Assembly (NCBI GenBank): GCA_002347965.1
Contig: DDYN01000031.1
Span: 20,177 to 84,176 of the forward strand
Direction of reading: 5' to 3'
Length of the DNA stretch: 64,000 bases
Source of the DNA: Nitrospirae bacterium UBA2233
Lineage (GTDB): Bacteria > UBA2233
The position numbers and the translations under genes are program-made. A model generated the notes under the pieces. The model made no database searches and was not told the DNA's origin. It saw nothing but the letters and a program-made list of their open reading frames with translations. Shown here piece after piece: positions 3,463 to 15,921 of the stretch (positions are counted from its first letter, which is position 1; every line of letters begins with the position of its first letter).

Positions 3463-5085
3463 TTAAAACACATACTGAAGCCCCAAATCAACTCCGTCGT
3501 GCCGGGCAAACTGGCCAAAGACGCCTCCTGGCTTGCCCCAGTAGAGATGCCCGCCCAAAAGAACGGTAAGTTTTTCCGAAAGCTCATAGGTCATGTTCGG
3601 CTCGTAGCGGAACCCCCCATCACCCGAAAGCCATATCCAAAGGCTTCTAAAAGTAAGCCTGTCGTTGGTAAACCCGAAAGGCTTGAGAACCGTCCAGTAA
3701 ATACCCTCCTGGTTGCGGTTCAGGGGCGAGCCGACGGGCAAATCGAGCATGTCGCCGTCATAGCCGAAGATGTGCTCGTGGTCCCAGCGCAGTATGTTTG
3801 TCCAGTCCTTATAAAAGTAGGTCTCGAGCTGAACGCCGGTCAACAGCGAGTCGGCCTTGTCCCACCCGTGGTTTTCCGGGGTGTAGTTCCTCACCTGGTA
3901 GTAGCGGCCCTTTAAATAGCGTCCCTCGAACTTAAGCGCCCACTGGCGGCCAAGCCAGTCAAAGGAGCGGTCGGCGCCCAGGCCGAACTTGTGCACCCGG
4001 TTGTATTTGGGGTTCAAGTGAACGTGGACGGGCGGCCAAAGGTCGCGAATAAAACCCGTGTTCAAGCTTGATGAGGCAGCTAAAGAAGACTTTGGCATGG
4101 GCGGGAGGTTAAACCGATCGAACAAAAGCACGTTTTGAAACATCGTGGGCATGTCGTACCAGCTCCAAAGATAGTGCAGCGATACATCCCAGCCGCTTTT
4201 CATCATCCCCAGCTTGACCCCGATTTGGCTGTTTTCAAAGGTCCTCGCTGGCTTGTCCGCCTTGGCAAACGACACGCGCGAGAAGCGGTCCATGGCCGAG
4301 GAAGCTCGCTGGTTAAACTCCCAGACGCTGCCCGAAACTGTCGGCCCAAAGCTCGGCTCGAAGTTTGGAATCCACAAAAACTGGAATTCGTAGTCCTTAA
4401 AAAAATAATCGGCGTTTACCATGAACTCGGGGATTCTTTGGTACTCCACGGGAATAAAGGGGTTGATCGTGGGAAAGGGGTACCATGTGTAGTCAAAGCC
4501 GTGCACCATGTCCAGGATCTGACGGCCGTCTACGCGCCCCCAAGAGACCTGCTGCTTTCCCACGCGCAGCTGTAGCCCGCCAACCTGGTAATCGGCGTAC
4601 CACTCCCTGAAGATCTGGTCCATGGAGTTGTAGTAATGGAGCGTATCCATAGAACCGTAGAACGAGTTACGGAACCCGTCGTTCCAGTCGTAGGCGGAGT
4701 CGTACAAGAACATGTTCCGAACCGTAAACTTTAAATCCGGGCTCATCCTGTAAGCCGTCTGGAGGTCCATGAGCCAGTGGATGCCCTGGAAGTTAGAGCT
4801 AGTAGACGGAAGGTTTCGGTTTTGGTTCATATCCTTGTGGATGCTTAGGCTCGTTAGATTCTGCAGGTTGGCCTTTAGCTCTAGCCCTGGAACGCTCATT
4901 TGGAGGGGCTGAGTAATCGCCTTACCTAAAGGGTCAAACTCTTCAATCTTGCGACGAAAATCGGCGCCGTCGAGTGCCATCGCACCCCCAGCCCAACCCG
5001 CGAGCAAAACGCCCGCAATCAAGCCTTTGCCTGCTGCCCCGAACATGCTCGGAATCCTCCTTGTCTGCAGTTTTGACCGGGGCAA
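3463..5085 (-). CDS. Outer-membrane beta-barrel protein, DUF1302-like
   Basis: 540 aa with an N-terminal signal peptide (MFGAAGKGLIAGVLLAGWAGGAMA), an aromatic-rich sequence with alternating hydrophobic strands, and a C-terminal ...GLQYVF ending in Phe (OMP signature). It sits in the position DUF1302 occupies in DUF1302/DUF1329/RND triads. Confidence 0.6.
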   Translation of the reverse strand: MPRSKLQTRRIPSMFGAAGKGLIAGVLLAGWAGGAMALDGADFRRKIEEFDPLGKAITQPLQMSVPGLELKANLQNLTSLSIHKDMNQNRNLPSTSSNFQGIHWLMDLQTAYRMSPDLKFTVRNMFLYDSAYDWNDGFRNSFYGSMDTLHYYNSMDQIFREWYADYQVGGLQLRVGKQQVSWGRVDGRQILDMVHGFDYTWYPFPTINPFIPVEYQRIPEFMVNADYFFKDYEFQFLWIPNFEPSFGPTVSGSVWEFNQRASSAMDRFSRVSFAKADKPARTFENSQIGVKLGMMKSGWDVSLHYLWSWYDMPTMFQNVLLFDRFNLPPMPKSSLAASSSLNTGFIRDLWPPVHVHLNPKYNRVHKFGLGADRSFDWLGRQWALKFEGRYLKGRYYQVRNYTPENHGWDKADSLLTGVQLETYFYKDWTNILRWDHEHIFGYDGDMLDLPVGSPLNRNQEGIYWTVLKPFGFTNDRLTFRSLWIWLSGDGGFRYEPNMTYELSEKLTVLLGGHLYWGKPGGVFGQFARHDGVDLGLQYVF

Positions 5086-5086
5086 T

Positions 5087-6166
5087 TTAAGCCCCCTTGT
5101 CTTCCTTGCGCTCTTTCTCGATCAAGCGCTTGGTCTCTTCTGGAATTTCCCATTTGCGCTCGCTGGGAAACCTGCCTTCCAAAAGAGGAGGAAGCTTCGG
5201 CAAGTCCTTTGGAGACTTAATGTAGGGGTAGGCACCGATGTCGGGCACGCGCCAGGTGAACTCTTTTCTCAGGAAATTGGGCTCGAACTCCGTTTCCTTG
5301 AAGTTGCCCTCGTGGGTTACGTTAAAGATCCGCACCCACTGCCTAAAGTGCTTCTTGACGTTCCAGTCGTACCAGTTCGTATGATCGAGGATGGCGTCTT
5401 TGCCCTGAGGTTCCATGCGTCTTTCAAAAATCTTCCAGAGGTCGCCCTTCTTGTCGTACTGCTCTTCTCTCCAGCGGATGAAGCGCTTTTTATCTATCCA
5501 AACGATGCGTTTGCCCAAATAATAGCCGGGATCGGTATGGACGGCCTTGATCACGTAGCAACCGACGGGCTCAGGGATAATGCCGTCCGCTGGAAGCGTG
5601 TCTTCACCCAAAAGCGTGTGCGTTTCGTCGAAGGGCTCCCGGCCGACGATGTCGTCGTAGGTCATGTCGCCACCCGCGACGCCATCCGAGCGCTCCCCCG
5701 TGGCCAGCCGCCTGACCTGTCTCAAGGCGGGAATGTATATCCACCAGTCCACCATCTTGCGCACGTCCGGAGTTTCTTTGTATGTCCAAGAAAGAAGCGT
5801 CTGGTTCTTAAGCTGCGGGGGGGTAAGCATGAAGATGATATCCTTGCGCTTTGGGGCTCCAGGCTTGAGCGTGACGCCTTTGAAATCGAGGAGATCTCTG
5901 TAGTCTTCGTATTGCTGCAAGCGCTTTCGCATGGTGGCCCTTTGCCTCATGTAGCCGCGGGCGTCCACTTCAATTTCTAAGGCATCGCAATCGTAGTTCT
6001 TTACCGCCGGAAAATACGTGGCATCCTCCAAGAAGGCAATTTGGTCCGCCGTGTAGGGTGGCTTCCATGGGAACGCCTCGGGATGGAGCGTCTTCATATC
6101 TAGCCCGAATGCCAAGGCTGGAATCATAGCCTGGGCAAATAGAAGGCCTAACAATCTTTTGAGCAT
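5087..6166 (-). CDS. DUF1329-like (LolA-like) periplasmic/outer-membrane protein. ORF-track start is 6235; the favoured start is M24.
   Basis: Classic signal peptide MLKRLLGLLFAQAMIPALAFG if started at 6166, immediately after the RND stop. The middle motif YIPALRQVRRLATGERSDGVAGGDMTYDDI resembles DUF1329. Confidence 0.55.
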   Translation of the reverse strand: MLKRLLGLLFAQAMIPALAFGLDMKTLHPEAFPWKPPYTADQIAFLEDATYFPAVKNYDCDALEIEVDARGYMRQRATMRKRLQQYEDYRDLLDFKGVTLKPGAPKRKDIIFMLTPPQLKNQTLLSWTYKETPDVRKMVDWWIYIPALRQVRRLATGERSDGVAGGDMTYDDIVGREPFDETHTLLGEDTLPADGIIPEPVGCYVIKAVHTDPGYYLGKRIVWIDKKRFIRWREEQYDKKGDLWKIFERRMEPQGKDAILDHTNWYDWNVKKHFRQWVRIFNVTHEGNFKETEFEPNFLRKEFTWRVPDIGAYPYIKSPKDLPKLPPLLEGRFPSERKWEIPEETKRLIEKERKEDKGA

Positions 6167-6168
6167 GT

Positions 6169-8541
6169 CTAACCCCCTGTGGAAGGTGTTTTTGTGAGGC
6201 GTCCGGCTTCCGTCAGGAATTTTGGCCGGATCCAAAAGACCAAGAAGGGCAAAACGGCTGAGGCAAGCACCATGTTGGCCAAAAAATCCAACGCCAAAAG
6301 TCCGCCCAAATATCCATGCACCTTGAGCCCCGTCCCCAAAAGGGCGAGAGAGCCCAAAGAGAGCGCAATCGCCGTGAATAGGACCGCCTTCCCGGAGCTA
6401 GCAAGCGCCCTGGTGACGCCTTGATCGAGCGAGCCGAGGGCCGCAAACTCTTCTTTGATTCGGCTGAGTACGTAAAACGAGAAGTCTACGCCGATCCCGA
6501 TACCCAAGGAGGCCACTGGGACGGTCGGGATAAACATACCAAAGCGGCTGAAGCCCATCACGCCGGCCGTAATCAGGCTGGCAATGACGAGCGGCACCAA
6601 AAGCACCAGAGCGGCCAGCACAGAACGGTACGTAAGAAGCGCAAGGACAACCACCACGGCGCTTACTACGAGCACGTTGGGCATGTTCTCGTTGGCGATC
6701 GATTGCATGGCGGCGTAGTAGAGCGCGGCAGTCCCGCCGGCACGGCGAATCTCGATGCCATCGATAGGCGGCTTGCCCTTCAAGAACGCCGAAATGGTAT
6801 TTTCAAGGTCTTCGAGGTGGTGGTTCTGCCGGTCTTTCAGGAGAATGAGCATGTTTGCCCTTGAGTAGTCCATAGTAAAGAAGCTGCGGGTGTCCTCCGG
6901 GTCGCCGCCGCCAGAAACGAACATCTCCAAGTATACGTAGGCCAGCTGGTCGGTTGGCGGAATTTCAGGCCTTTTGGTGTTCGCCCAGAGGAAATGGATG
7001 TTCTTTAAGATGTCCCCGTAGTGGCTCACGTAGCCGACGTAGGACTTTTGAACCAGGATGCGCTCGAGCTCGTCTAGCCTCTTGAGCAGCTCGACGTTGG
7101 CGATGGCACCCTCGCCCTGCCCCTTGATTTGGAGCATGTAGCTCTCCGAACCGGCAAAGTTCTTTCCGATACGCGCGACATCTTTATTGACCTCGCTTGA
7201 CGGCCAGAACAGGTAAGAGCCTTTATCTAAATCTCCGTACTGAAGCTTCGAGGCACCGTAGGCAAACACGCAGGCTACAACAAGAATAGCGGCCAAGACG
7301 CCGAACCGTGCCTTGGTTTTGGCCTGGCTCGCAATCTTCAAAAAAATCCTGTCTAGGAGCCCTATCTTGTATGCCCTCTTGAGCTCGGGCAGCTTGGGGC
7401 TCGACATAAGCGTGCACATGAGCGGGATGAACAGAAGAACGGTGAAAAAGACGGAGAGTATACCTAGCCCGGCCAAGATCCCCATATTTTTAAGCCCGCT
7501 AAACGGGAACAAGGCAAGCGCCACGAAGCCCGCACCGTCGGTGATGATCCCTGCCGAGGTCGGCACGATCAGGTTGACGATTGTCTTGTGAGCGGCCAGG
7601 TTTTTGTCTTTTTCAAACCCGTAGGTTTCGTAGAAGCGTTTTAGCACCTGGATACTGTGGGCGACCGAGAGCGCCACGATCAAAAACGGCGCCGTGAGCG
7701 TCATCGGGTCTAGCTTAACGCCCATCCAACCCATGATGCCAAGGCACCAAACGAGCGACAGTAGCCCCCCGGATAACGGCAAAAAGACGCCCCGCTTCGA
7801 TTTGAACAAAGCCCAGAGGACAAAGCCCATCAATACGAGCGCCACGACCCCGATAATCACGAAGCGTCGAACCCCCTCGAGCAACACGCCGATCTCTACC
7901 GGCTGGCCAGCCAAAGAGACCCGAAGAGATGGGTTTTCCCGTTCGAGCGATCGCTTGAGCCGCTTGAGCCCCCCGTAGATAGCCCCAGGGTCGGTGTAGG
8001 GGCTGTAATCGGCCTGCACAAGGGCCCCCTTGAGGTCCTTCGAAACGAGCGTCCCTAATACTTGCGGGTCCCGAAGGACCCCTTGCTTGAGTGCGACCCT
8101 CGCCCAGGCATCGCCTTTAAGGGCACGCTCCGCCAATGCTCGGAACGGTACGGCGTTAAGCACCTCCAGCCCGTCCGGGTCTTTTGTGATATAGAGATAC
8201 CGGAGCTTGTTGGCCGCGATGGAGAGCACCCTGTAGCCGTAAACCCCCTCCATGTCCAAGAGCCCCTGGGTCGCCCTTATGACCGAGCGGAGGTTTTCTT
8301 CGGTGAATACATCGCCCTTTTTAAACCGAAGGCCAAACGATACAAGGTTTCCGCCGCCGAAATCGCTCTCGATTTCTTCGTTCACACGCGTGTAGGGATG
8401 GTTTTGAGGGACGAGGAAGCTTAAATCCTTTGTAAGGCCAAACCTGAGGGCTCCCGCCCCCAGAGCGAGGGTGACGATAAACAGGAAGGCCAAAAGCCAA
8501 GACCTGTGACGAATAATTTTAGGCTCCATCCCCTCCTCCAA
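6169..8541 (-). CDS. RND/MMPL-family exporter (12-TM, two large periplasmic loops)
   Basis: 790 aa. N-terminal TM followed by a large loop, then a TM bundle (IIGVVALVLMGFVLWALF..., GILAGLGILSVFFTVLLFIPLM...), a second loop and a second TM bundle. This topology and length are typical of HpnN/MMPL-like RND transporters. Confidence 0.8.
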   Translation of the reverse strand: MEEGMEPKIIRHRSWLLAFLFIVTLALGAGALRFGLTKDLSFLVPQNHPYTRVNEEIESDFGGGNLVSFGLRFKKGDVFTEENLRSVIRATQGLLDMEGVYGYRVLSIAANKLRYLYITKDPDGLEVLNAVPFRALAERALKGDAWARVALKQGVLRDPQVLGTLVSKDLKGALVQADYSPYTDPGAIYGGLKRLKRSLERENPSLRVSLAGQPVEIGVLLEGVRRFVIIGVVALVLMGFVLWALFKSKRGVFLPLSGGLLSLVWCLGIMGWMGVKLDPMTLTAPFLIVALSVAHSIQVLKRFYETYGFEKDKNLAAHKTIVNLIVPTSAGIITDGAGFVALALFPFSGLKNMGILAGLGILSVFFTVLLFIPLMCTLMSSPKLPELKRAYKIGLLDRIFLKIASQAKTKARFGVLAAILVVACVFAYGASKLQYGDLDKGSYLFWPSSEVNKDVARIGKNFAGSESYMLQIKGQGEGAIANVELLKRLDELERILVQKSYVGYVSHYGDILKNIHFLWANTKRPEIPPTDQLAYVYLEMFVSGGGDPEDTRSFFTMDYSRANMLILLKDRQNHHLEDLENTISAFLKGKPPIDGIEIRRAGGTAALYYAAMQSIANENMPNVLVVSAVVVVLALLTYRSVLAALVLLVPLVIASLITAGVMGFSRFGMFIPTVPVASLGIGIGVDFSFYVLSRIKEEFAALGSLDQGVTRALASSGKAVLFTAIALSLGSLALLGTGLKVHGYLGGLLALDFLANMVLASAVLPFLVFWIRPKFLTEAGRLTKTPSTGG

Positions 8542-8596
8542 TCCTTTACATGTAAAGCTTTCGGTATTTTACCGAACCAAGAGGGGATTGTCAACG

Positions 8597-9817
8597 CTAC
8601 GCCTCGATTTTGTAGCCGGACTCCAGGTGTTCGGTCAGGTCAAGCCCGCTCTGTTCGGCCTCAGAGGCCACCCGAAGCCCCATGAAACGCTCCAAGAGCC
8701 AAACGATCAAGAAGGTCACCAAAAGAGAATACGTCACGGCCACGACTACGCCGATTCCTTGAATCGCGATTTGGGAGAAATTGCCGAACAAAAGCCCGTC
8801 TGCGCCGGAAGGGTTCCAGTATTTTGCGGCAAAGATGCCCGTCGCCAGGCCTCCCCAGACTCCGCCGACACCGTGGATACCGACCACGTCGAGCGCGTCG
8901 TCGTAGCCGCCCTTAAATTTTGCGAACACCCCCGCGTAACACAGCAGGCCCGCGACAAGCCCGATGAACAGCGCGGGGGCAGGTCCGACGAACCCTGCCG
9001 CCGGAGTGACGGCCACAAGCCCGGCCAGCGCCCCCGAGGCGATCCCTAAGGTTGTGGGCTTGCCCCTATGAACGGCCTCGGCCAAGATCCAGGATAGCGC
9101 CGCACCGGCCGTGGCCGCCTGGGTGTTGAAGAATGCGAGCGCGGCCAGGGGGCTTGCCGAAAGGGCGCTGCCCGCGTTGAACCCGAACCATCCAAACCAC
9201 AAAAGCCCGGCGCCCAAAAGCGTCAAGGGGAGGTTGTTCGGGTGGAACGGCTCGTGGCCCCAGCCCATGCGTTTGCCGATGAACCAGGAGCTCACGAGGG
9301 CCGCCGCGCCCGAGTTGACATGAATAACTGTTCCGCCCGCAAAATCGAGCGCTCCCAGCTTCTGAAGCCATCCGCCCCCCCAGACCCAGTGGCACACGGG
9401 CAGGTACACGAACGTCGTCCAGAGGACCACGAACCAAAAAAACGGCCAAAAGCGCATTCTTTCGGCGAACGCGCCCGTAATCAGGGCGGGTGTAATAATC
9501 GCAAACATCAGTTGGAACGCGCAGAACAACACGTGTGGAATCCCTGGAGCGTAGGGCCCAGCATCGAGCCCCACCCCTTTTAGCATCACCCAGTCGAAGT
9601 TGCCCAAAACCCCGCCCACGTCCGGGCCGAACGCGAGCGAATAACCATAAAGCACCCAAATCACGGAAACAATGCCCATGCACGCAAAGCTATGCATGAC
9701 AACCGAAAGGACGTTCTTAGCGCGCACTAGCCCGCCGTAGAAGACGGCAAGTCCCGGCGTCATCAGCATGACCATGGCGGAAGCGATCAGCATGAATCCC
9801 GTATCCGCGGCGTTCAT
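8597..9817 (-). CDS. amt: Ammonium transporter (Amt family)
   Basis: 406 aa, 11-TM Amt signature (MLIASAMVMLMTPGLAVFYGGLVRAKN..., FGFNAGSA). No adjacent glnK/PII gene. Confidence 0.9.
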   Translation of the reverse strand: MNAADTGFMLIASAMVMLMTPGLAVFYGGLVRAKNVLSVVMHSFACMGIVSVIWVLYGYSLAFGPDVGGVLGNFDWVMLKGVGLDAGPYAPGIPHVLFCAFQLMFAIITPALITGAFAERMRFWPFFWFVVLWTTFVYLPVCHWVWGGGWLQKLGALDFAGGTVIHVNSGAAALVSSWFIGKRMGWGHEPFHPNNLPLTLLGAGLLWFGWFGFNAGSALSASPLAALAFFNTQAATAGAALSWILAEAVHRGKPTTLGIASGALAGLVAVTPAAGFVGPAPALFIGLVAGLLCYAGVFAKFKGGYDDALDVVGIHGVGGVWGGLATGIFAAKYWNPSGADGLLFGNFSQIAIQGIGVVVAVTYSLLVTFLIVWLLERFMGLRVASEAEQSGLDLTEHLESGYKIEA

Positions 9818-10698
9818 CGAAGGCCCTCCTGTTTCCCCAATAACGTGAGTGTGTTCAACCCCCCGATGTTCGCCCGCTCCTGGCTAGAGATGGGAAGCTT
9901 GAAGAATCGCTCCAAGTTCCGCTCGGCGCTGCCGTAGGGCGTATCCGTCCCGAAGAGCACCTTATCGTCCCCGTGCTTTTGGATGATCTCGAGCACCGTA
10001 CCCTGCTCCAAAAAGCCGAGCGCGTAGGAGAGATCGAGGTATACTTCCGAACCCAAAAGCTCTTCATGAATCGCCCCCCAGTTGTAAATGGCTCCGAGGT
10101 GCGCGGCGATGATCTTGAGCCCCGGGAAAGCTTGAGGCAGCCTGGCCAGGTCGTTCGCCGCTCTGGGGGATTTCTGGACGATTTCGTCGTAGAAGACCGT
10201 GCAGGTAAGCACCACGAGGCCCAAATCGCGGCAGGCTTCAAAGAGCCTAAGCCAGATAGGTTCAAAAAAAGGGCTCATTGTCGCGCCCTTTTGGAAGAAC
10301 GGGTGGATCTTCACGCCCAGGAACCCTCTTGCCTTAAGATCCTCAAGCGTGGCCTTGAGATCGTCAAGGTCTGGATGAATCGCGCCGAACGGCAGCAGTC
10401 TGGGAAAGCGCTTCGTCACCTTTTCGGTGAAGTCGTTGAGCTTATGCACCTGGTGAGGCTTCATGGCGAGCGGCAAGATGACGCCGTAGGCAAAGCCCTC
10501 ACGCTCTAGCCAGGCGTCATAAGCCTCAGCCGTCCCGTCAAGATCCGTATCGCCATCATAGTTGGATTCTCCCTCGAGCCTTCTTTGCTCTCTAAAGGCA
10601 AGCGCTTTTTTTGCGAGCTCGGGCGGGTAGACATGCGCATGGCAATCGACAACGGGGGTCAAACCCCCAGGCTCAGGCATCCCCATACCCCGCAACAC
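9814..10698 (-). CDS. Amidohydrolase-2 family TIM-barrel metal-dependent hydrolase
   Basis: VVDCHAHVYPPE N-terminal metal-binding motif; ...HPD..., ...AAHLG..., ...GTDTPY... His/Asp ligands. The stop overlaps the amt start as ATGA (9814-9817). Confidence 0.7.
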   Translation of the reverse strand: MLRGMGMPEPGGLTPVVDCHAHVYPPELAKKALAFREQRRLEGESNYDGDTDLDGTAEAYDAWLEREGFAYGVILPLAMKPHQVHKLNDFTEKVTKRFPRLLPFGAIHPDLDDLKATLEDLKARGFLGVKIHPFFQKGATMSPFFEPIWLRLFEACRDLGLVVLTCTVFYDEIVQKSPRAANDLARLPQAFPGLKIIAAHLGAIYNWGAIHEELLGSEVYLDLSYALGFLEQGTVLEIIQKHGDDKVLFGTDTPYGSAERNLERFFKLPISSQERANIGGLNTLTLLGKQEGLR

Positions 10699-11035
10699 AT
10701 CCGGGCGCCTCTTCGACCTCGACCCGTAGGGGCGCCGAGCGGAATGTTGGCTTGAGCGTCTCGTACACGAACCTGGCGAAGCGCTCGGCCGTGGGGCTGG
10801 TGTGCTCGAAGGGGGGTACCTCGTTCATGAGCCTTTGTGAAAAAGGGGCGATCGTGTTTTTTAGGAGCGCCTTGAGCTCCAAGAAATCGACGATCATCCC
10901 CTCGTTTCCCGGGTCTCCGTACACGCGTACACGAACGCCGAAAGAATGGCCGTGAACGGGCTCGGGGCTTCCCTTATAGCTCGTTAAGTAGTGGGCCGCC
11001 TCAAAACGCTCGAATGCTTCCACATACCCGATCAT
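10673..11035 (-). CDS. 6-pyruvoyl-tetrahydropterin synthase (PTPS/QueD) family protein, lacking the QueD catalytic Cys
   Basis: 120 aa; EAAHYLT...PVHGHSF...E zinc-binding HGH motif of the PTPS fold. No Cys precedes HGH, so probably not a canonical QueD. Confidence 0.65.
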   Translation of the reverse strand: MIGYVEAFERFEAAHYLTSYKGSPEPVHGHSFGVRVRVYGDPGNEGMIVDFLELKALLKNTIAPFSQRLMNEVPPFEHTSPTAERFARFVYETLKPTFRSAPLRVEVEEAPGCVAGYGDA

Positions 11036-11151
11036 CGGAGCCCTTCACCTTTCTTTTGGCTTGAGGCGATAATCTTCCAGACACAAAACGCGCTGAGGAC
11101 AATGATAGCCGACCAGGATAATACCATTAGAGCAAGGCCATAGCCGTTCAT
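11032..11151 (-). CDS. Predicted 39-aa single-TM microprotein, translationally coupled on both sides
   Basis: MNGYGLALMVLSWSAIIVLSAFCVWKIIASSQKKGEGLR. The ATG overlaps the NSS transporter stop as ATGA (11148-11151) and the stop overlaps the PTPS-like start as ATGA (11032-11035). Hydrophobic core plus a basic C-tail. Confidence 0.45.
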   Translation of the reverse strand: MNGYGLALMVLSWSAIIVLSAFCVWKIIASSQKKGEGLR

Positions 11152-12710
11152 TCTGGAACCTCCAGGGCTGTCATCTGGGTGAGCCGTTCTTTCTTGAGCT
11201 TGATGAGCACGCAAATCACGCTGAACATGACGAGCACGAACGCCCTGGCCGCCCAGCGCGTGCCTATATGTTCCTTGGGAATCCCCTCGAAAAACAAAAA
11301 CGCCGGCGCTTCCTTTACGCACCACGCTAGGAGCAATACAAGAAGTGCGACTGGTGTAACCCATGTGAGCAGAGGCTTGAAGAAGGAAGGGACTGCGATG
11401 TCGTTGTCTCGCGTAATCTCTTTCCAGGCCCTGTTTGCCCCGAACACCCACACGAACAAGACAACCTCGATGAGCCCAAAAAAAACGATCCCCATAGTCC
11501 CAGCGATAAAGTCCAGCTCATCCAAATACCCTTTACCCAAAAAGAAGTAAACGGGCTGGACGCACGCGAACATCACGACCCCTACGATCGAGGACGCCCT
11601 GGTCGAGTCCATGTCGAAGGCGCTGGCCAAAAAATGCACGCTCGGCTGGATCAAAGCGATCGAGCTCGTGATGCCGGCAAAGAATAAAAGTAGAAACCAA
11701 AAGAAGGCAAAGAGCCTGCCGGCCGGGATTTGCGTGAAGATCACGGGCATCGAGACAAACCCCAAATCGAAGCTGCCGCCCTTGGCGATCTCAACCGTCA
11801 TCTGAGGCCCGAAAAACAGGTAGGCCGCGATGATACCGATCGAAGCACCCAAGATTACCTCGCACGCCTCGTTTAGAGACACGGCGGTTAGGCCGCTTAG
11901 CGCAATGTCGTCGTTTTTGTGCAAATAAGTAGCGTACGTAAGGATCTGACCCCAGCCCAACGACAGCGTGAAGAAAACCTGCCCCGCCGCGGCGAGCCAA
12001 ACCCCCGGGTTGGTGAGCGCCTTGAAGTCCGGGTTCCACAAGAACCCGAGTGCGGCGTTAAGGTTCCAATCGGGCCGAAAAGGAGAGCCAAGGCTGAACA
12101 CCCGAACGACCAAAACCAGCCCCATAAAGAATAAAAGCGGCATCGCTAGCTTTGAAAACCACTCTATTCCTTTTGAAATGCCGCGTGAGAGGATCCAGAG
12201 GTTGATAACGAGCGTTACGAGCAAAAAAAAGTAAGCCCAACCCCCGCCCTGAAAGAATTCGTTTCTTTCGAGGCCCTGGAAGCCCTTCAAGAAGCTCGCC
12301 ATCTGAGTGTGCTCGGTAATCCGCTCAAAGCGGCCTGTAAGCGCAAAGAAGCTGTATGCCAGGCTCCAGGATTCGATGTAGACGTAGTATACGCTGACAA
12401 CGAACGTTAAAAGAATGCCGATTCCGCCTAAGTACTTAGCGACGCGCCTTGGCCACAGAAGGTGAAACACGCTGGGCAGCGAGCCACGGGTAAAGGCCCC
12501 TCCGTACCGCCCCATCGCCCATTCCATCCACATTAAAGGGATGCCGAGGATCACGAGCGACACGAGGTAGGGGATAATGAATGCCCCGCCGCCGTTCTGA
12601 CTGGCCTGCACGGGAAAACGAAGGAAGTTGCCAAGGCCCACGGCAGACCCAGCCATGGCGAGGATCATCCCCCACCTGGACGCCCAGCCGTCGTGCTTTG
12701 TCCCTTCCAT
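11148..12710 (-). CDS. Sodium-dependent transporter, neurotransmitter:sodium symporter (NSS/SNF) family
   Basis: 520 aa; N-terminal GMILAMAGSAVGLGNFLRFP... NSS signature; about 12 TM. Confidence 0.85.
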   Translation of the reverse strand: MEGTKHDGWASRWGMILAMAGSAVGLGNFLRFPVQASQNGGGAFIIPYLVSLVILGIPLMWMEWAMGRYGGAFTRGSLPSVFHLLWPRRVAKYLGGIGILLTFVVSVYYVYIESWSLAYSFFALTGRFERITEHTQMASFLKGFQGLERNEFFQGGGWAYFFLLVTLVINLWILSRGISKGIEWFSKLAMPLLFFMGLVLVVRVFSLGSPFRPDWNLNAALGFLWNPDFKALTNPGVWLAAAGQVFFTLSLGWGQILTYATYLHKNDDIALSGLTAVSLNEACEVILGASIGIIAAYLFFGPQMTVEIAKGGSFDLGFVSMPVIFTQIPAGRLFAFFWFLLLFFAGITSSIALIQPSVHFLASAFDMDSTRASSIVGVVMFACVQPVYFFLGKGYLDELDFIAGTMGIVFFGLIEVVLFVWVFGANRAWKEITRDNDIAVPSFFKPLLTWVTPVALLVLLLAWCVKEAPAFLFFEGIPKEHIGTRWAARAFVLVMFSVICVLIKLKKERLTQMTALEVPE

Positions 12711-12954
12711 TGGTATTGTCCCGCAAAGGTTTTAAGTGACAAAACATCCCCCGCCGGTCTATTATGCCAACGGAGCGGCCTCATTTCAAGGAGGATGAGA
12801 ATTGCAACGCAATAAACAAAACTTGTTCCTTAATGTCCCTTAAAAAAGGAGGGCGCCCAGACGTTCGATGGCTCGAGGATTACGATAGGAGCGTGCAATG
12901 CGCGATGGGACGGGTGCTTTTCGCTCGAAACCCCCTTGGGAAAGCGCTTCTATC

Positions 12955-13878
12955 TTACCTTATGCCCGCGTAAACGCCCTTAGGAGAATTGATTCTCGAT
13001 AAGACGAAGCGCATGAGGGCTTCTTTATCTTCAAAGGTATGGCGCTCGCATGGGAACACGACAAACTCCTTGGGGTCGCTTGCGGCACGGAAGAGGTCGA
13101 GAGCCCTTGGCAGCGTGACGGTTGCATCGAGCGCACCGTGGAGCAACAAGACAGGGGTTGGCGAGAGCAGGCCGATGGAGTCCTTCATCCGTACTCTGTT
13201 GCCGTCGATGACGAGCTCTTCGAAGGACGTCTGATCGAATAAGATCCCTCCTACCGGCTTAGGGGAACGAAAGAACAGCTCAAGAACGGGGAAGCCCCCG
13301 TTTTCCACCCTAAGGTTCAGCATATCGAGCAACGGCTGCATGCGATACAAGTCGCCTAGCTTTGAGGGCGAGGCAACCGACACGACGAGCTCAACAAGGT
13401 CCTTGGCGCGGGTCGTTCCGAGCATGCAGCCCAGCGAAGCCCCCAGCGAATGGCCATACACAACAAGACGCTTCTTGGGGTATGCCTCCTTCAGCCAAAC
13501 GATCAGCGTTTCCAGGTCGGAAAGGCTGCCTAGAAACGAGAACGGAACCTTGGAATCCCCGTGTCCACGTTGATCGAACCCTACCCAGCCGATTCCATCG
13601 GCCTCCAACATGGACTTTTCTTTAAGGAAGCCCCCCTTCGTGCCGCCCATCCCGTGAAGGAACACGACCAACACGTCGGCGCCTTCTACGAGGTTCGCCA
13701 AGCAAGGAATTTCCACTCTGTCGGCTGGGTTTGTTAAGGCGAACGCCTTGGGTTCGCTCCATTGAAACTCCTGCGCGCAGAGAGCAAGCCCGGCCTCAAA
13801 TACCCAGCCCCCCGCTACGGCAAACCCGCAAAGTGTCCCAACGAAGGCCACCAGCAGGCGTAAGCCTACGCTATGCAC
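12955..13878 (-). CDS. Alpha/beta-hydrolase fold protein with N-terminal membrane anchor/signal
   Basis: HGMGG oxyanion motif, GHSLGAS nucleophile elbow (GxSxG), and a C-terminal His region. Confidence 0.7.
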   Translation of the reverse strand: MHSVGLRLLVAFVGTLCGFAVAGGWVFEAGLALCAQEFQWSEPKAFALTNPADRVEIPCLANLVEGADVLVVFLHGMGGTKGGFLKEKSMLEADGIGWVGFDQRGHGDSKVPFSFLGSLSDLETLIVWLKEAYPKKRLVVYGHSLGASLGCMLGTTRAKDLVELVVSVASPSKLGDLYRMQPLLDMLNLRVENGGFPVLELFFRSPKPVGGILFDQTSFEELVIDGNRVRMKDSIGLLSPTPVLLLHGALDATVTLPRALDLFRAASDPKEFVVFPCERHTFEDKEALMRFVLSRINSPKGVYAGIR

Positions 13879-13880
13879 GA

Positions 13881-14270
13881 CTAAGATAGCGCGCTAAGCC
13901 TTGGAGTAGGGCTTTTTTCTGCCACGATCCTGTTTTTTTCGTCTACATACACAAGCCTCGGGCGATGATGCGCAACCTCTTCGTTCGTAAGCGTGTCAAA
14001 CGCGGCGATAATGACAATATCGCCCTTCTTGGCCAGGTGTGCAGCCGCCCCGTTGATGACGACCTCGCCCGTATCCCTTCCCCCAAGAATCGCGTAGGTC
14101 TCAAAGCGCGTTCCGCTGGTTACGTTCCAGACATGCACCTGCTCGAACGGTAGAATCCCAGAGGCCTCCAGGACCCTTGCGTCTATCGTGATCGAGCCCT
14201 CGTAGTCCAGGTTGGCATCGGTCACTCTCGCCCGGTGAATCTTCGCTTTCAGCATCGTCTTCATACTCAC
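13881..14270 (-). CDS. panD: Aspartate 1-decarboxylase
   Basis: 129 aa; MLKAKIHRARVTDANLDYEGSITID...; the pyruvoyl-forming G-S site is in the expected position. Confidence 0.9.
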   Translation of the reverse strand: MSMKTMLKAKIHRARVTDANLDYEGSITIDARVLEASGILPFEQVHVWNVTSGTRFETYAILGGRDTGEVVINGAAAHLAKKGDIVIIAAFDTLTNEEVAHHRPRLVYVDEKNRIVAEKSPTPRLSALS

Positions 14271-14278
14271 TCCTTTCT

Positions 14279-15118
14279 TTAAAGACGAACGTTATCGATC
14301 AGCCTAGCCCTTCCCACTCTCGCGGCAACCATCATTCTGCATCCCGGGTAAGCTTGGTTTGGGGTTTCGAGTGTTTCCGGTTCGATCAGGGTCACGTAGT
14401 CCAACGTCTCGATACCGGATTCCAAAAGAGCCTTCCTCACGATCGCAACGAGCACATCCGGGTCTTTTGTCCCGCGCTCAAAGCACACTCTGCCCGCTTG
14501 TAGCCCAAGAAATATCCCCGCCGCTAGCTGGCGCTCTCGAGGAATGAGGTAAGCATTCCTGGAAGAAAGCGCAAGGCCGTCTTTCTCTCGCACCGTTTCT
14601 ATAGCCTCGAGGGCCACTTGAAGGTTCAAATCTTTGACCATTCTTTGAAGGATGACGAACTGCTGGAAGTCTTTCTCGCCAAAAAGCGCGAGGTCAGGCG
14701 ATACGATCTCGAACAGCTTCAGGACAACCGTGGCCACCCCGTCAAAATGCCCTGGCCGAAACGCCCCGCAGAGCTTTTCAGAGAGCCCTTCCACCCGAAC
14801 TTTCGTAGTAAAGCCCTTGGGGTACATCTCTTGAGCTTCTGGTGCAAACACAAGGTCTACCCCTTCTGCCCGGCATAGCTCCAAGTCTTTCTCGAGCGTG
14901 CTGGGGTAGCGTGCGTAGTCCTCGCTCGGACCGAATTGGGCTGGGTTCACAAAAATGCTCACGACCGCCACGTCGCTTTTTTGCCTGCACGCTCGAATGA
15001 GAGCCCTGTGGCCTTCATGGAGCGCGCCCATCGTGGGGACGAGGCCGACACGCCGATCGGCCCGGCTCTTTGAAGCCAGCCATTCCCTTGTGGACCGGAT
15101 AGTCGCCTTCTTTTCCAC
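14279..15118 (-). CDS. panC: Pantoate--beta-alanine ligase
   Basis: 279 aa; VPTMGALHEGHRALIR HIGH-like motif. Confidence 0.9.
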   Translation of the reverse strand: MEKKATIRSTREWLASKSRADRRVGLVPTMGALHEGHRALIRACRQKSDVAVVSIFVNPAQFGPSEDYARYPSTLEKDLELCRAEGVDLVFAPEAQEMYPKGFTTKVRVEGLSEKLCGAFRPGHFDGVATVVLKLFEIVSPDLALFGEKDFQQFVILQRMVKDLNLQVALEAIETVREKDGLALSSRNAYLIPRERQLAAGIFLGLQAGRVCFERGTKDPDVLVAIVRKALLESGIETLDYVTLIEPETLETPNQAYPGCRMMVAARVGRARLIDNVRL

Positions 15119-15123
15119 GACCC

Positions 15124-15921
15124 CTACCCGTACGTTTCGTCGGGCCCGGGAAAGGATCCTTCCCGAACGGCTGAGGCGAACGCAGTAAGCGCGTTCCGCG
15201 CCTCTTGAGAGGTTTTTCCGAACGCGCGGGCAAGCTTAGGAGGAGAGGGGCTGATTCCGACTACGTCGTGGAACACCAAGATTTGCCCGTCTGTGTAGGG
15301 CCCGGCCCCGATCCCGATCGTAGGGATGGAAAGCCGCGTCGTAAGGCTCCTGGCAACCTCGGAGCGAGTGCCCTCAATCACGACAGAAAAGGCCCCGGCC
15401 GCCTCGAGGCTGAGGGCGTCCTCGAGCAGCCTGCTTGCCGATTCTTCGGTTTTGCCCTGGATGCGGTACCCCGCCATGGCCCGAACATGCTGGGGCATGA
15501 GGCCGATATGGCCCATTACCGGGATACCTGCTTCGACCATGGCTCGGACCGTGGGGGCGACCTCTTTCCCGCCTTCGAGCTTGACGGCAACGGCGCGGGT
15601 TTCCTTGAGCACCCTTCCTGCGGCCTTAAGCGCGGCTGGAACGCTAGTTTGATAGCTCATGAACGGCAGGTCTACGATGACGGGGAGAGCCTTGGCTCCC
15701 CTCGAAACAGCCTTAGCGTGGTGAAGCACCTCGCCTAGCGTCACGGGCAGGGTCGTTTCGTAGCCGAGCTCGACCATACCCAACGAATCACCGACCAAAA
15801 TCGCGTCCACCCCTGCCTCCTCGGCAAGATGGGCCTGCCAGGAGGTATAGGCCGTGACCATCGCCAGGGTTCGTCCTGGTTTGGAGCGGAACAAAAGCGT
15901 CCCTTCAAACACGCGCGGCAT
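15124..15921 (-). CDS. panB: 3-methyl-2-oxobutanoate hydroxymethyltransferase
   Basis: 265 aa; TAYTSWQAHLAEEAGVDAILVGDSLGMV signature. Confidence 0.9.
   Translation of the reverse strand: MPRVFEGTLLFRSKPGRTLAMVTAYTSWQAHLAEEAGVDAILVGDSLGMVELGYETTLPVTLGEVLHHAKAVSRGAKALPVIVDLPFMSYQTSVPAALKAAGRVLKETRAVAVKLEGGKEVAPTVRAMVEAGIPVMGHIGLMPQHVRAMAGYRIQGKTEESASRLLEDALSLEAAGAFSVVIEGTRSEVARSLTTRLSIPTIGIGAGPYTDGQILVFHDVVGISPSPPKLARAFGKTSQEARNALTAFASAVREGSFPGPDETYG

Follow-up and report, generated by a model that had tools for sequence, protein, structure and literature searches.

A run of five overlapping genes occupies positions 8597 to 12710 of a 64-kilobase (64-kb) stretch of contig DDYN01000031.1 from Nitrospirae bacterium UBA2233 (assembly GCA_002347965.1), and this whole 64,000-nucleotide (nt) stretch is called the window throughout. 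The cluster encodes a LeuT-type neurotransmitter:sodium symporter (NSS), a 39-residue microprotein with a single transmembrane (TM) helix, a PTPS-fold protein, an amidohydrolase of the Amidohydro_2 family, and an Amt-type ammonium channel. The reading we favor, and consider somewhat more likely than not, is that these genes form a single sigma-70-driven operon in an uncultured Nitrospirota lineage and that this operon is a mosaic of three independently evolving modules, not a linear pathway leading from import through hydrolysis to ammonium.

The first module would comprise a LeuT-orthologous Na+/amino-acid symporter and a dedicated, coupled 39-residue single-TM partner. The second would be a clade-specific pair composed of a T-fold protein that bears the PTPS-III signature and a divergent Amidohydro_2 metalloenzyme. 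The chemistry of this T-fold protein would likely be a Zn- and Glu-dependent side-chain cleavage that converts dihydroneopterin (tri)phosphate into 6-hydroxymethyl-dihydropterin, which would bypass FolB. The third module would be an AmtB-type ammonium channel that operates without GlnK. The logic common to all three would be the co-expression, from one promoter, of functions in nitrogen and amino-acid acquisition.

An earlier, sequence-only reading of the same DNA arrived at a different proposal. It regarded the five genes as tightly coupled at the level of translation and as parts of one salvage route, wherein a nitrogenous compound is imported, two enzymes hydrolyze it or open its ring, and Amt handles the ammonium. 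The domain calls on which that proposal was built are borne out by profile matches for the symporter (PF00209), the PTPS-fold protein (PF01242), the amidohydrolase (PF04909), and the channel (TIGR00836). The route itself does not fare as well, as is argued below.

Gene order, overlaps and promoter

All five open reading frames (ORFs) are on the minus strand, and direct reading of the sequence places the 39-residue, PTPS-fold, Amidohydro_2, and Amt genes behind the NSS gene in that order. Three of the junctions are the ATGA overlaps described previously, at 11148-11151, 11032-11035, and 9814-9817. On the plus strand each reads "tcat," corresponding to ATGA in the coding direction. The first of these joins the NSS stop codon to the start of the 39-residue ORF, the second joins the stop of that ORF to the PTPS start, and the third joins the amidohydrolase stop to the Amt start. 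At the remaining junction, the PTPS stop codon (10673-10675) overlaps the amidohydrolase gene by 8 nt if translation begins at ATG 10680, as the sequence-only reading had assumed, or by 14 nt or 26 nt if it begins at ATG 10686 or GTG 10698. The start at 10680 fits, by length, the 288-residue NCBI call for MDY7016982.1, a protein that is at least 90% identical and belongs to the same cluster.

Overlapping genes are frequent in this genome: among 36 further same-strand junctions in the window, about 7-9 show an overlap, which may be 4 nt long in as many as four cases. A single ATGA overlap is therefore unremarkable, whereas a run of four overlaps, one after another, is unusual. Comparative conservation provides stronger evidence than such counts within the window. 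Both junctions that flank the 39-residue ORF keep a 4-nt overlap in relatives despite changes to the start codon (ATGA, TTGA, GTGA), and the ATGA overlap between the NSS and microprotein genes is found again in three other phyla. In addition, a Shine-Dalgarno sequence is present 7 nt upstream of the microprotein start (GGAGG) and 7 nt upstream of the Amt start (AGGAGG, within the amidohydrolase gene). Translational coupling is plausible, and it has comparative support at the NSS-microprotein junction.

A consensus scan identified a sigma-70-type promoter-like site with an extended -10 element (TG) at 12761..12789 on the minus strand, ~50 nt before the NSS start. Its sequence is TGGCATAAT, which can be summarized as TTGAAA-17-CATAAT. 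The core of this site (CTTGAA...TnGGCATAAT) is unchanged in four lineages, represented by the window and by loci L001, L003, and L006 (alignment A3), and this conservation supports the existence of one operon. In L001, the same promoter stands directly upstream of the PTPS gene. No minus-strand promoter-like site was found inside the five-gene cluster by the consensus scan, and terminator-like matches occur at the frequency expected from shuffled sequence (10 observed versus 9.6 expected). Given this arrangement, it is plausible that the five genes are a single transcription unit.

Other forms of control and of origin were considered and set aside. Searches with Rfam models for a riboswitch or leader RNA upstream of the NSS gene gave no match at the gathering threshold in the whole window and none at E<=1 in the interval 12600-13000. 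Likewise, inspection by eye revealed no TGGCAC-N5-TTGC match that would indicate a sigma-54 promoter upstream of the NSS gene. The GC content of the cluster genes, both overall and at third codon positions (GC3), matches that of the neighboring genes. The cluster is therefore native, and horizontal transfer was ruled out on this basis.

Close relatives of the cluster, with 70-95% identity, were located on metagenome contigs. All five genes are present in L093 (95%) and in L006 (70%). L001 (83%) carries the promoter followed by the PTPS, amidohydrolase, and Amt genes, without the NSS and microprotein genes. L003-L005 (80%) carry the NSS, microprotein, PTPS, and amidohydrolase genes, with Amt cut to a 26-codon remnant. 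This remnant lies within a 46-residue ORF (L003 11225-11365, likewise in L004 and L005) that matches the Amt N-terminus with 88% identity over its first 26 residues, and the ORF is what a deletion has left of Amt in this sister lineage. Because the NSS and microprotein genes are lost in L001 and Amt is lost in L003-L005, with the enzyme pair kept in both, the PTPS/amidohydrolase pair is the invariant core of the clade and either transporter module is dispensable. Parsimony is the sole basis on which we infer that L001 lost the NSS and microprotein genes and that these were not gained by the other lineages. The exact deletion junction in L001 could not be placed, with only the promoter aligning convincingly.

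The sequence-only reading had proposed phylogenetic profiling of the PTPS-like/amidohydrolase pair as a check on its route. The two genes are co-localized throughout the clade of 70-95% identity. Outside this clade, relatives of the PTPS-like protein were studied at 79 metagenome loci (42-52% identity) and relatives of the amidohydrolase at 80 genome loci among the matches listed (28-36% identity). None of the 79 PTPS loci has an Amidohydro_2, NSS, or Amt neighbor, and none of the 80 amidohydrolase loci has a PTPS gene within 10 kb. Thus, among the loci examined, the pairing is confined to a narrow Nitrospirota clade.

A LeuT ortholog and its 39-residue neighbor

The first gene of the cluster (11148..12710, minus strand) encodes a 520-residue member of the NSS/SLC6 family, which matches PF00209 (SNF) with 188 bits. 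A phmmer comparison with LeuT chains in the PDB gives an E value of 1e-143 and 482 bits, with residues 4-511 aligned to residues 3-509. The protein is collinear over its full length with the 12-TM LeuT of Aquifex aeolicus (PDB 2A65), the prototype of the NSS/SLC6 family, with 520 versus 519 residues and 49% identity. Residues identical to those of LeuT in the phmmer alignment include A22-V23-G24-L25-G26-N27, Y108, F253-T254-S256, N286, and T354-S355. The ligands of the Na1, Na2, and substrate sites are conserved save for three natural substitutions, N21S, F259W, and I359L, and these distinguish the substrate pocket from that of the A. aeolicus protein. A further feature is that the gene precedes that of a microprotein to which it appears to be translationally coupled. 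By these characteristics, the NSS protein is a LeuT ortholog and a predicted Na+-dependent amino-acid carrier, and not the importer of an unusual nitrogen compound.

Among 128 full-length NSS proteins, comprising the relatives listed and the members of the clade cluster, W259 occurs only in this Nitrospirota clade, and the others carry I, M, or F at this position. In LeuT, F259 and I359 act together as a volumetric sensor, and F259W alone raises selectivity for glycine (PMC6689989). Trp is also present at the position of LeuT residue 259 in glycine transporters (PMC8602798). From the pocket formed by the natural F259W and I359L substitutions, we predict a carrier that favors glycine or other very small amino acids, with glycine as the probable substrate.

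The 39-residue ORF (11032..11151, minus strand) encodes MNGYGLALMVLSWSAIIVLSAFCVWKIIASSQKKGEGLR, in which a single hydrophobic helix follows a short N-terminus and precedes a basic tail. The start codon is TTG in L003 and GTG in L006, and the overlaps (TTGA and GTGA), the length, and the reading frame are retained in both. Among the clade relatives, the microprotein is absent exactly where the NSS protein is absent. Homologs in the equivalent position are present in L093, L003, L006, L173, L175, and L180.

The last three of these homologs come from outside the clade, where the sequence following each of five distant LeuT-type NSS genes (50-54% identity) was read for homologous ORFs. Such ORFs, each with an ATGA overlap with the LeuT-type NSS gene, occur at three of the five loci: a 50-residue ORF in Margulisiibacteriota (L173 4569-4721), a 35-residue ORF in Elusimicrobia (L175 4536-4643), and a 32-residue ORF in Schekmanbacteria (L180 3057-3155). 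No microprotein ORF was found in the DNA downstream of the NSS genes from Ignavibacteria (L174) and Nitrospinota (L176). With the exception of that of L180, the seven microprotein sequences can be aligned gap-free through position 33, and G5, W13, I16, and C23 are invariant among these six (alignment A5). As judged from this conservation in relatives and in three other phyla, the 39-residue protein noticed by the sequence-only reading is real, and its predicted single-TM character is conserved.

The family is easily overlooked. A phmmer search with the 39-residue protein against 1.84 billion representatives returned two matches (92% and 48% identity), a number that cannot gauge the size of the family; the match with 48% identity, P0367, is an additional member. 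The ORF is uncalled in the NCBI record that carries the consecutive accessions MDY7016981-84 and is elsewhere called "hypothetical protein," and the homologs on the L173, L175, and L180 contigs are not called as genes. The window microprotein matches no Pfam or NCBIfam model, and five homologs likewise gave no match to such models even at an E value of 10.

An arrangement of this kind has a precedent in MetPS of Corynebacterium glutamicum (Trotschel et al. 2008, as cited in PMC2807442) and, more broadly, in the MetS family (NF033493, PF16951). There too, an NSS gene is directly followed by an overlapping gene for a single-TM protein of ~30-50 residues with a basic C-terminal tail. An example of the MetS type with the same architecture as the window microprotein is present in Priestia megaterium (L179 2697-2813). 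However, there is no detectable sequence relationship between MetS and the protein described here. The microprotein and its homologs are unmatched by NF033493 and PF16951 up to an E value of 10, and the annotated MetS-type subunit of P. megaterium, used as a positive control, scores 54.9 bits with NF033493 and 29.5 bits with PF16951. An hhalign comparison of the microprotein family with MetS gives a probability of 0.6%. The partners differ as well, given that the NSS protein here belongs to the LeuT clade and that of Priestia is more distant (~34% identity), a comparison made with the Priestia protein.

By analogy, the microprotein is predicted to work like the MetS component of C. glutamicum MetPS, even though it is not a detectable member of the MetS family, and it would associate physically with the transporter. 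We tentatively propose that the 39-residue protein is the founder of an unrecognized family of accessory subunits for LeuT-clade NSS proteins, encoded by genes with 4-nt coupling in at least four phyla (Nitrospirota, Margulisiibacteriota, Elusimicrobia, and Schekmanbacteria), unrelated to MetS, and mostly missed by gene callers. This broader proposal is a serious possibility, to which we give a little less credence than would make it probable.

The enzyme pair, the ammonium channel and flanking genes

The third gene (10673..11035, minus strand) encodes a 120-residue T-fold enzyme of the PTPS family (PF01242, 95 bits) that carries the motif E25-P-V-H28-G-H30, the Zn ligand H15, and the pterin-anchoring Glu109. 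Residues H15, H28, H30, and Glu109 are invariant (alignments A1 and A4). The structural model has a predicted local distance difference test score (pLDDT) of 94, and Foldseek aligns it to QueD, PTPS, and PH0634 with a template modeling score (TM-score) of 0.8-0.88. As noted in the sequence-only reading, the catalytic Cys of QueD is absent, and indeed no Cys precedes the HGH motif. The motif found in its place, ExxHGH, is the PTPS-III signature, wherein Glu replaces the catalytic Cys (PMC5041015), and Glu38 of the Plasmodium falciparum PTPS is needed for the formation of 6-hydroxymethyl-dihydropterin (PMC2229834). The missing Cys is accounted for by this signature and is not evidence of novel chemistry. 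The protein carries a signature of the PTPS-III (FolB-bypass) type, and its chemistry is likely of the PTPS-III kind.

The score of the protein with the QueD equivalog model TIGR03367 is 72.8 bits, below the cut-off of 89.25, and in an alignment to QueD, Ser-Gln takes the place of the catalytic Asp-His dyad of QueD and rat PTPS. Together with the missing Cys, these features make the name "6-carboxytetrahydropterin synthase" (QueD) given by NCBI to MDY7016983.1 doubtful, and this name is probably wrong. Members of PTPS-III (COG0720), such as the P. falciparum PTPS and bacterial paralogs that replace FolB, share with the window protein the T-fold, three Zn-ligand His residues, the ExxHGH motif, and the absence of the Cys. 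In contrast to these, the window protein has Ser-Gln at the Asp-His position, shares no more than 16-19% identity with the Plasmodium enzymes by structural alignment, and is not clustered with folK or folP.

The wider family of PTPS-like proteins (ExxHGH/NEVPPF, 42-52% identity) comes mostly from soil metagenomes. The PTPS gene in this wider family is commonly followed by one for a protein of ~300 residues that has a lipobox (LTGC or LACG) and no Pfam match, for example at L007 8448-9350, at L008 8482-9408, and at 61 of the loci L094-L172. This lipoprotein was not found in the window. The possibility that the amidohydrolase is homologous to it was discarded, as no BLASTP match links the two. 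A functional link to the alpha/beta hydrolase encoded upstream of the cluster was also considered. This protein is only 26% identical to hydrolases found near distant PTPS genes, and few loci have one, so we take the resemblance to be coincidence.

The fourth gene (9814..10680, minus strand, with other possible starts at 10686 and 10698) encodes a divergent TIM-barrel metalloenzyme of 288 residues. Its match to PF04909 (83.5 bits) is above the cut-off of 26.4, and no NCBIfam model matches it. Residues D12, H14, H16, H102, K124, H126, H194, D216, and D246 are invariant (alignment A2), and the metal-ligand pattern composed of HxH (H14 and H16), H194, and D246 is complete. The model has a pLDDT of 90. 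The nearest folds in the PDB, as found by Foldseek, are gamma-resorcylate decarboxylase, LigW, ACMSD, and LigJ (E 5e-13, TM-score ~0.7, 12-18% identity), and the best match by sequence is the uncharacterized protein 3CJP (E 1e-4). Because these structural neighbors are decarboxylases and a hydratase, the name of the family does not imply amidase activity.

Like the ACMSD-like branch of Amidohydro_2 and 3CJP, the protein has a (beta/alpha)8 barrel with an N-terminal HxH, a beta-6 His, and a beta-8 Asp. It differs from this branch in having an invariant beta-4 Lys. At beta-5, distant relatives of the window protein differ from the branch in carrying a His (motif H-x-G-D), as binuclear amidohydrolases do. 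Every member of the window clade instead has Cys at this place (C158, in LTCTVFYD), and the clade proteins also have two insertions. At 25 of the 80 loci among the matches listed, the distant relatives (28-36% identity) recur in an operon with the order IorA-IorB-PaaK-ACT-amidohydrolase, in which an SSF Na+ symporter gene often comes next. Loci with the IorA-IorB-PaaK-ACT-amidohydrolase order include L014, L019, L020, L031, L040, L065, L076, L080, and L091. The hosts are mostly Clostridia-type metagenome-assembled genomes (Lachnospiraceae, Christensenellaceae), with one locus from Victivallales and one from Paludibacteraceae. This context suggests that the distant branch acts in arylpyruvate or arylacetate metabolism.

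The last gene (8597..9817, minus strand) encodes an Amt/AmtB-type ammonium channel of 406 residues (PF00909). The protein scores 458 bits with TIGR00836, for which the cut-off is 343.3, and 401 bits with the AmtB model. A tblastn search with GlnK found no P-II/glnK homolog in the 64-kb window, which agrees with the earlier observation that the cluster has no glnK. Thus, the channel itself is canonical, as in amtB-glnK operons. It departs from these operons in that no P-II gene is adjacent or elsewhere in the window, in that Amt is the final gene of a mixed operon, and in that it has been lost in one sister lineage.

A second promoter-like site, TTGACA and TAAAAT separated by 17 nt (11 of 12 matches), is located at 8566..8594 on the minus strand, in the 55-nt gap that follows Amt. 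This site is probably where the operon has its 3' boundary and where a unit for an MMPL/HAE3 transporter begins. Window positions 5087-8541 encode an MMPL/HAE3-family RND transporter (HpnN-like, with a low score) and a LolA-like/DUF1329 protein, both of which are present in all clade relatives. These are followed, at 3463..5085, by a gene for a 540-residue protein that has no Pfam match and is likewise conserved in all clade relatives. Directly upstream of the cluster and on the same strand, positions 12955-15921 carry panB, panC, panD, and the alpha/beta hydrolase gene with gaps of 2-8 nt, in an order that is kept in clade relatives. In L003, the alpha/beta hydrolase and NSS genes are separated by aldehyde dehydrogenase and DUF779 genes (6287-8107) encoded on the other strand. 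The presence of these genes indicates that the region from panD and the alpha/beta hydrolase gene to the MMPL gene is a hotspot for insertion and deletion.

Competing explanations and significance

Several observations weigh against a mosaic operon with the functions assigned above. Internal promoters are possible, and co-transcription of the five genes is something that we infer. The five-gene order is conserved only inside one clade of at least 70% identity, where descent alone predicts synteny. The neighboring alpha/beta hydrolase and MMPL genes are also syntenic across the same clade, and therefore the five-gene order by itself is no evidence of a pathway. The assignment of the PTPS-like protein is complicated by the replacement of Asp-His with Ser-Gln, yet this position varies among members of the ExxHGH family (DH, HH, RH, SG, QN, HN). 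No homologs of folK, folP, folE, or folB were found in the 64-kb window by tblastn, which leaves a role in folate synthesis unproven, and 61 of the 79 loci of the wider family pair the PTPS-like gene with the lipoprotein, not with folate genes. Relatives of the amidohydrolase adjoin Na+ symporters at 12 of the 80 loci among the matches listed, which leaves some room for a combination of import and processing. Finally, the tight overlap of the PTPS and amidohydrolase genes (8-14 nt) in every clade member could mean that the two enzymes form a real two-step pathway.

This last point is the basis of the alternative that survives best, although we regard it as unlikely. The PTPS-like protein and the amidohydrolase would together carry out a self-contained, clade-specific pterin pathway of two steps, for example by way of a neopterin phosphate or a carboxy-pterin intermediate, and would merely be embedded between two transporter genes. 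Consistent with this possibility, the pair, with an overlap of 8-26 nt in each case, forms the core of every clade member, and both proteins retain complete sets of metal-binding and catalytic residues. The frequent lipoprotein downstream of PTPS genes in the wider family also suggests that this subfamily usually has a partner. However, neither a fusion nor the co-occurrence of both families was found at the loci outside the clade, and the relatives of the amidohydrolase associate with the IorAB, PaaK, and ACT genes of arylpyruvate metabolism. Moreover, inheritance alone explains why the two genes are adjacent in a narrow clade.

A link with glycine and one-carbon metabolism is less likely still. 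According to this explanation, the W259 LeuT ortholog imports glycine, the PTPS-III-type enzyme (perhaps with the amidohydrolase) boosts folate, and Amt recaptures the ammonia that leaks. It has the merit that glycine cleavage depends on tetrahydrofolate and produces NH3. Selectivity for glycine is predicted from the natural F259W and I359L substitutions, ExxHGH is the PTPS-III signature of the folate branch, and all genes share one promoter. However, the link is thematic only, as is also apparent from the failure of tblastn to find folK, folP, folE, or folB in the window. No gcv gene was identified among the 18 window proteins scanned against Pfam, a scan that did not search for gcv specifically. 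Furthermore, the modules are lost independently, the amidohydrolase has no part in the scheme, and an enzyme of cofactor synthesis need not share regulation with the uptake of a substrate.

Amt proteins are generally seen as taking up or recapturing ammonium and not as disposing of it, which counts against the least likely explanation, the single salvage route in which NSS imports a pterin, a nucleobase, or an amino-acid amide for opening or hydrolysis by the two enzymes. Such a route could draw on the conserved promoter shared by all five overlapping genes, on the presence of all five in L006 (the most divergent clade member, which makes the arrangement probably ancestral to the clade), on the SSF Na+ symporters that adjoin some amidohydrolase relatives, and on the capacity of the PTPS fold to bind pterin- or purine-like rings. 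It is nonetheless not supported, because no deaminase or amidase is among the nearest structures to the amidohydrolase, which comprise decarboxylases and a hydratase, because the modules are separable, with NSS plus microprotein and Amt each lost where the enzyme pair stays, and because the pair is limited to the clade and was not found at 159 loci of relatives (79 plus 80 among the matches listed); the transporter, in turn, is a close LeuT ortholog with an intact alpha-amino-acid site and a narrowed pocket (PMC6689989).

We therefore return to the mosaic operon as the favored explanation. The cluster illustrates how separable modules can make up an operon that has the appearance of a pathway. 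It also flags a probable mis-annotation, given that a protein named QueD carries the PTPS-III signature.

The part of the locus that we find most interesting is the microprotein family coupled to LeuT. For the structure and mechanism of neurotransmitter:sodium symporters, LeuT serves as the reference, and it has been studied as a single polypeptide. If the microprotein indeed binds and tunes its NSS partner, then many relatives of LeuT would be heteromeric in vivo, and the partner in this lineage would be a LeuT protein naturally tuned to glycine by W259. A conserved, coupled single-TM partner in several phyla would give the LeuT system a testable accessory subunit, and it would be the second such family, independent of MetS. 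In addition, the natural F259W ortholog would make it easy to test whether substrate selectivity follows the "volumetric sensor" model.

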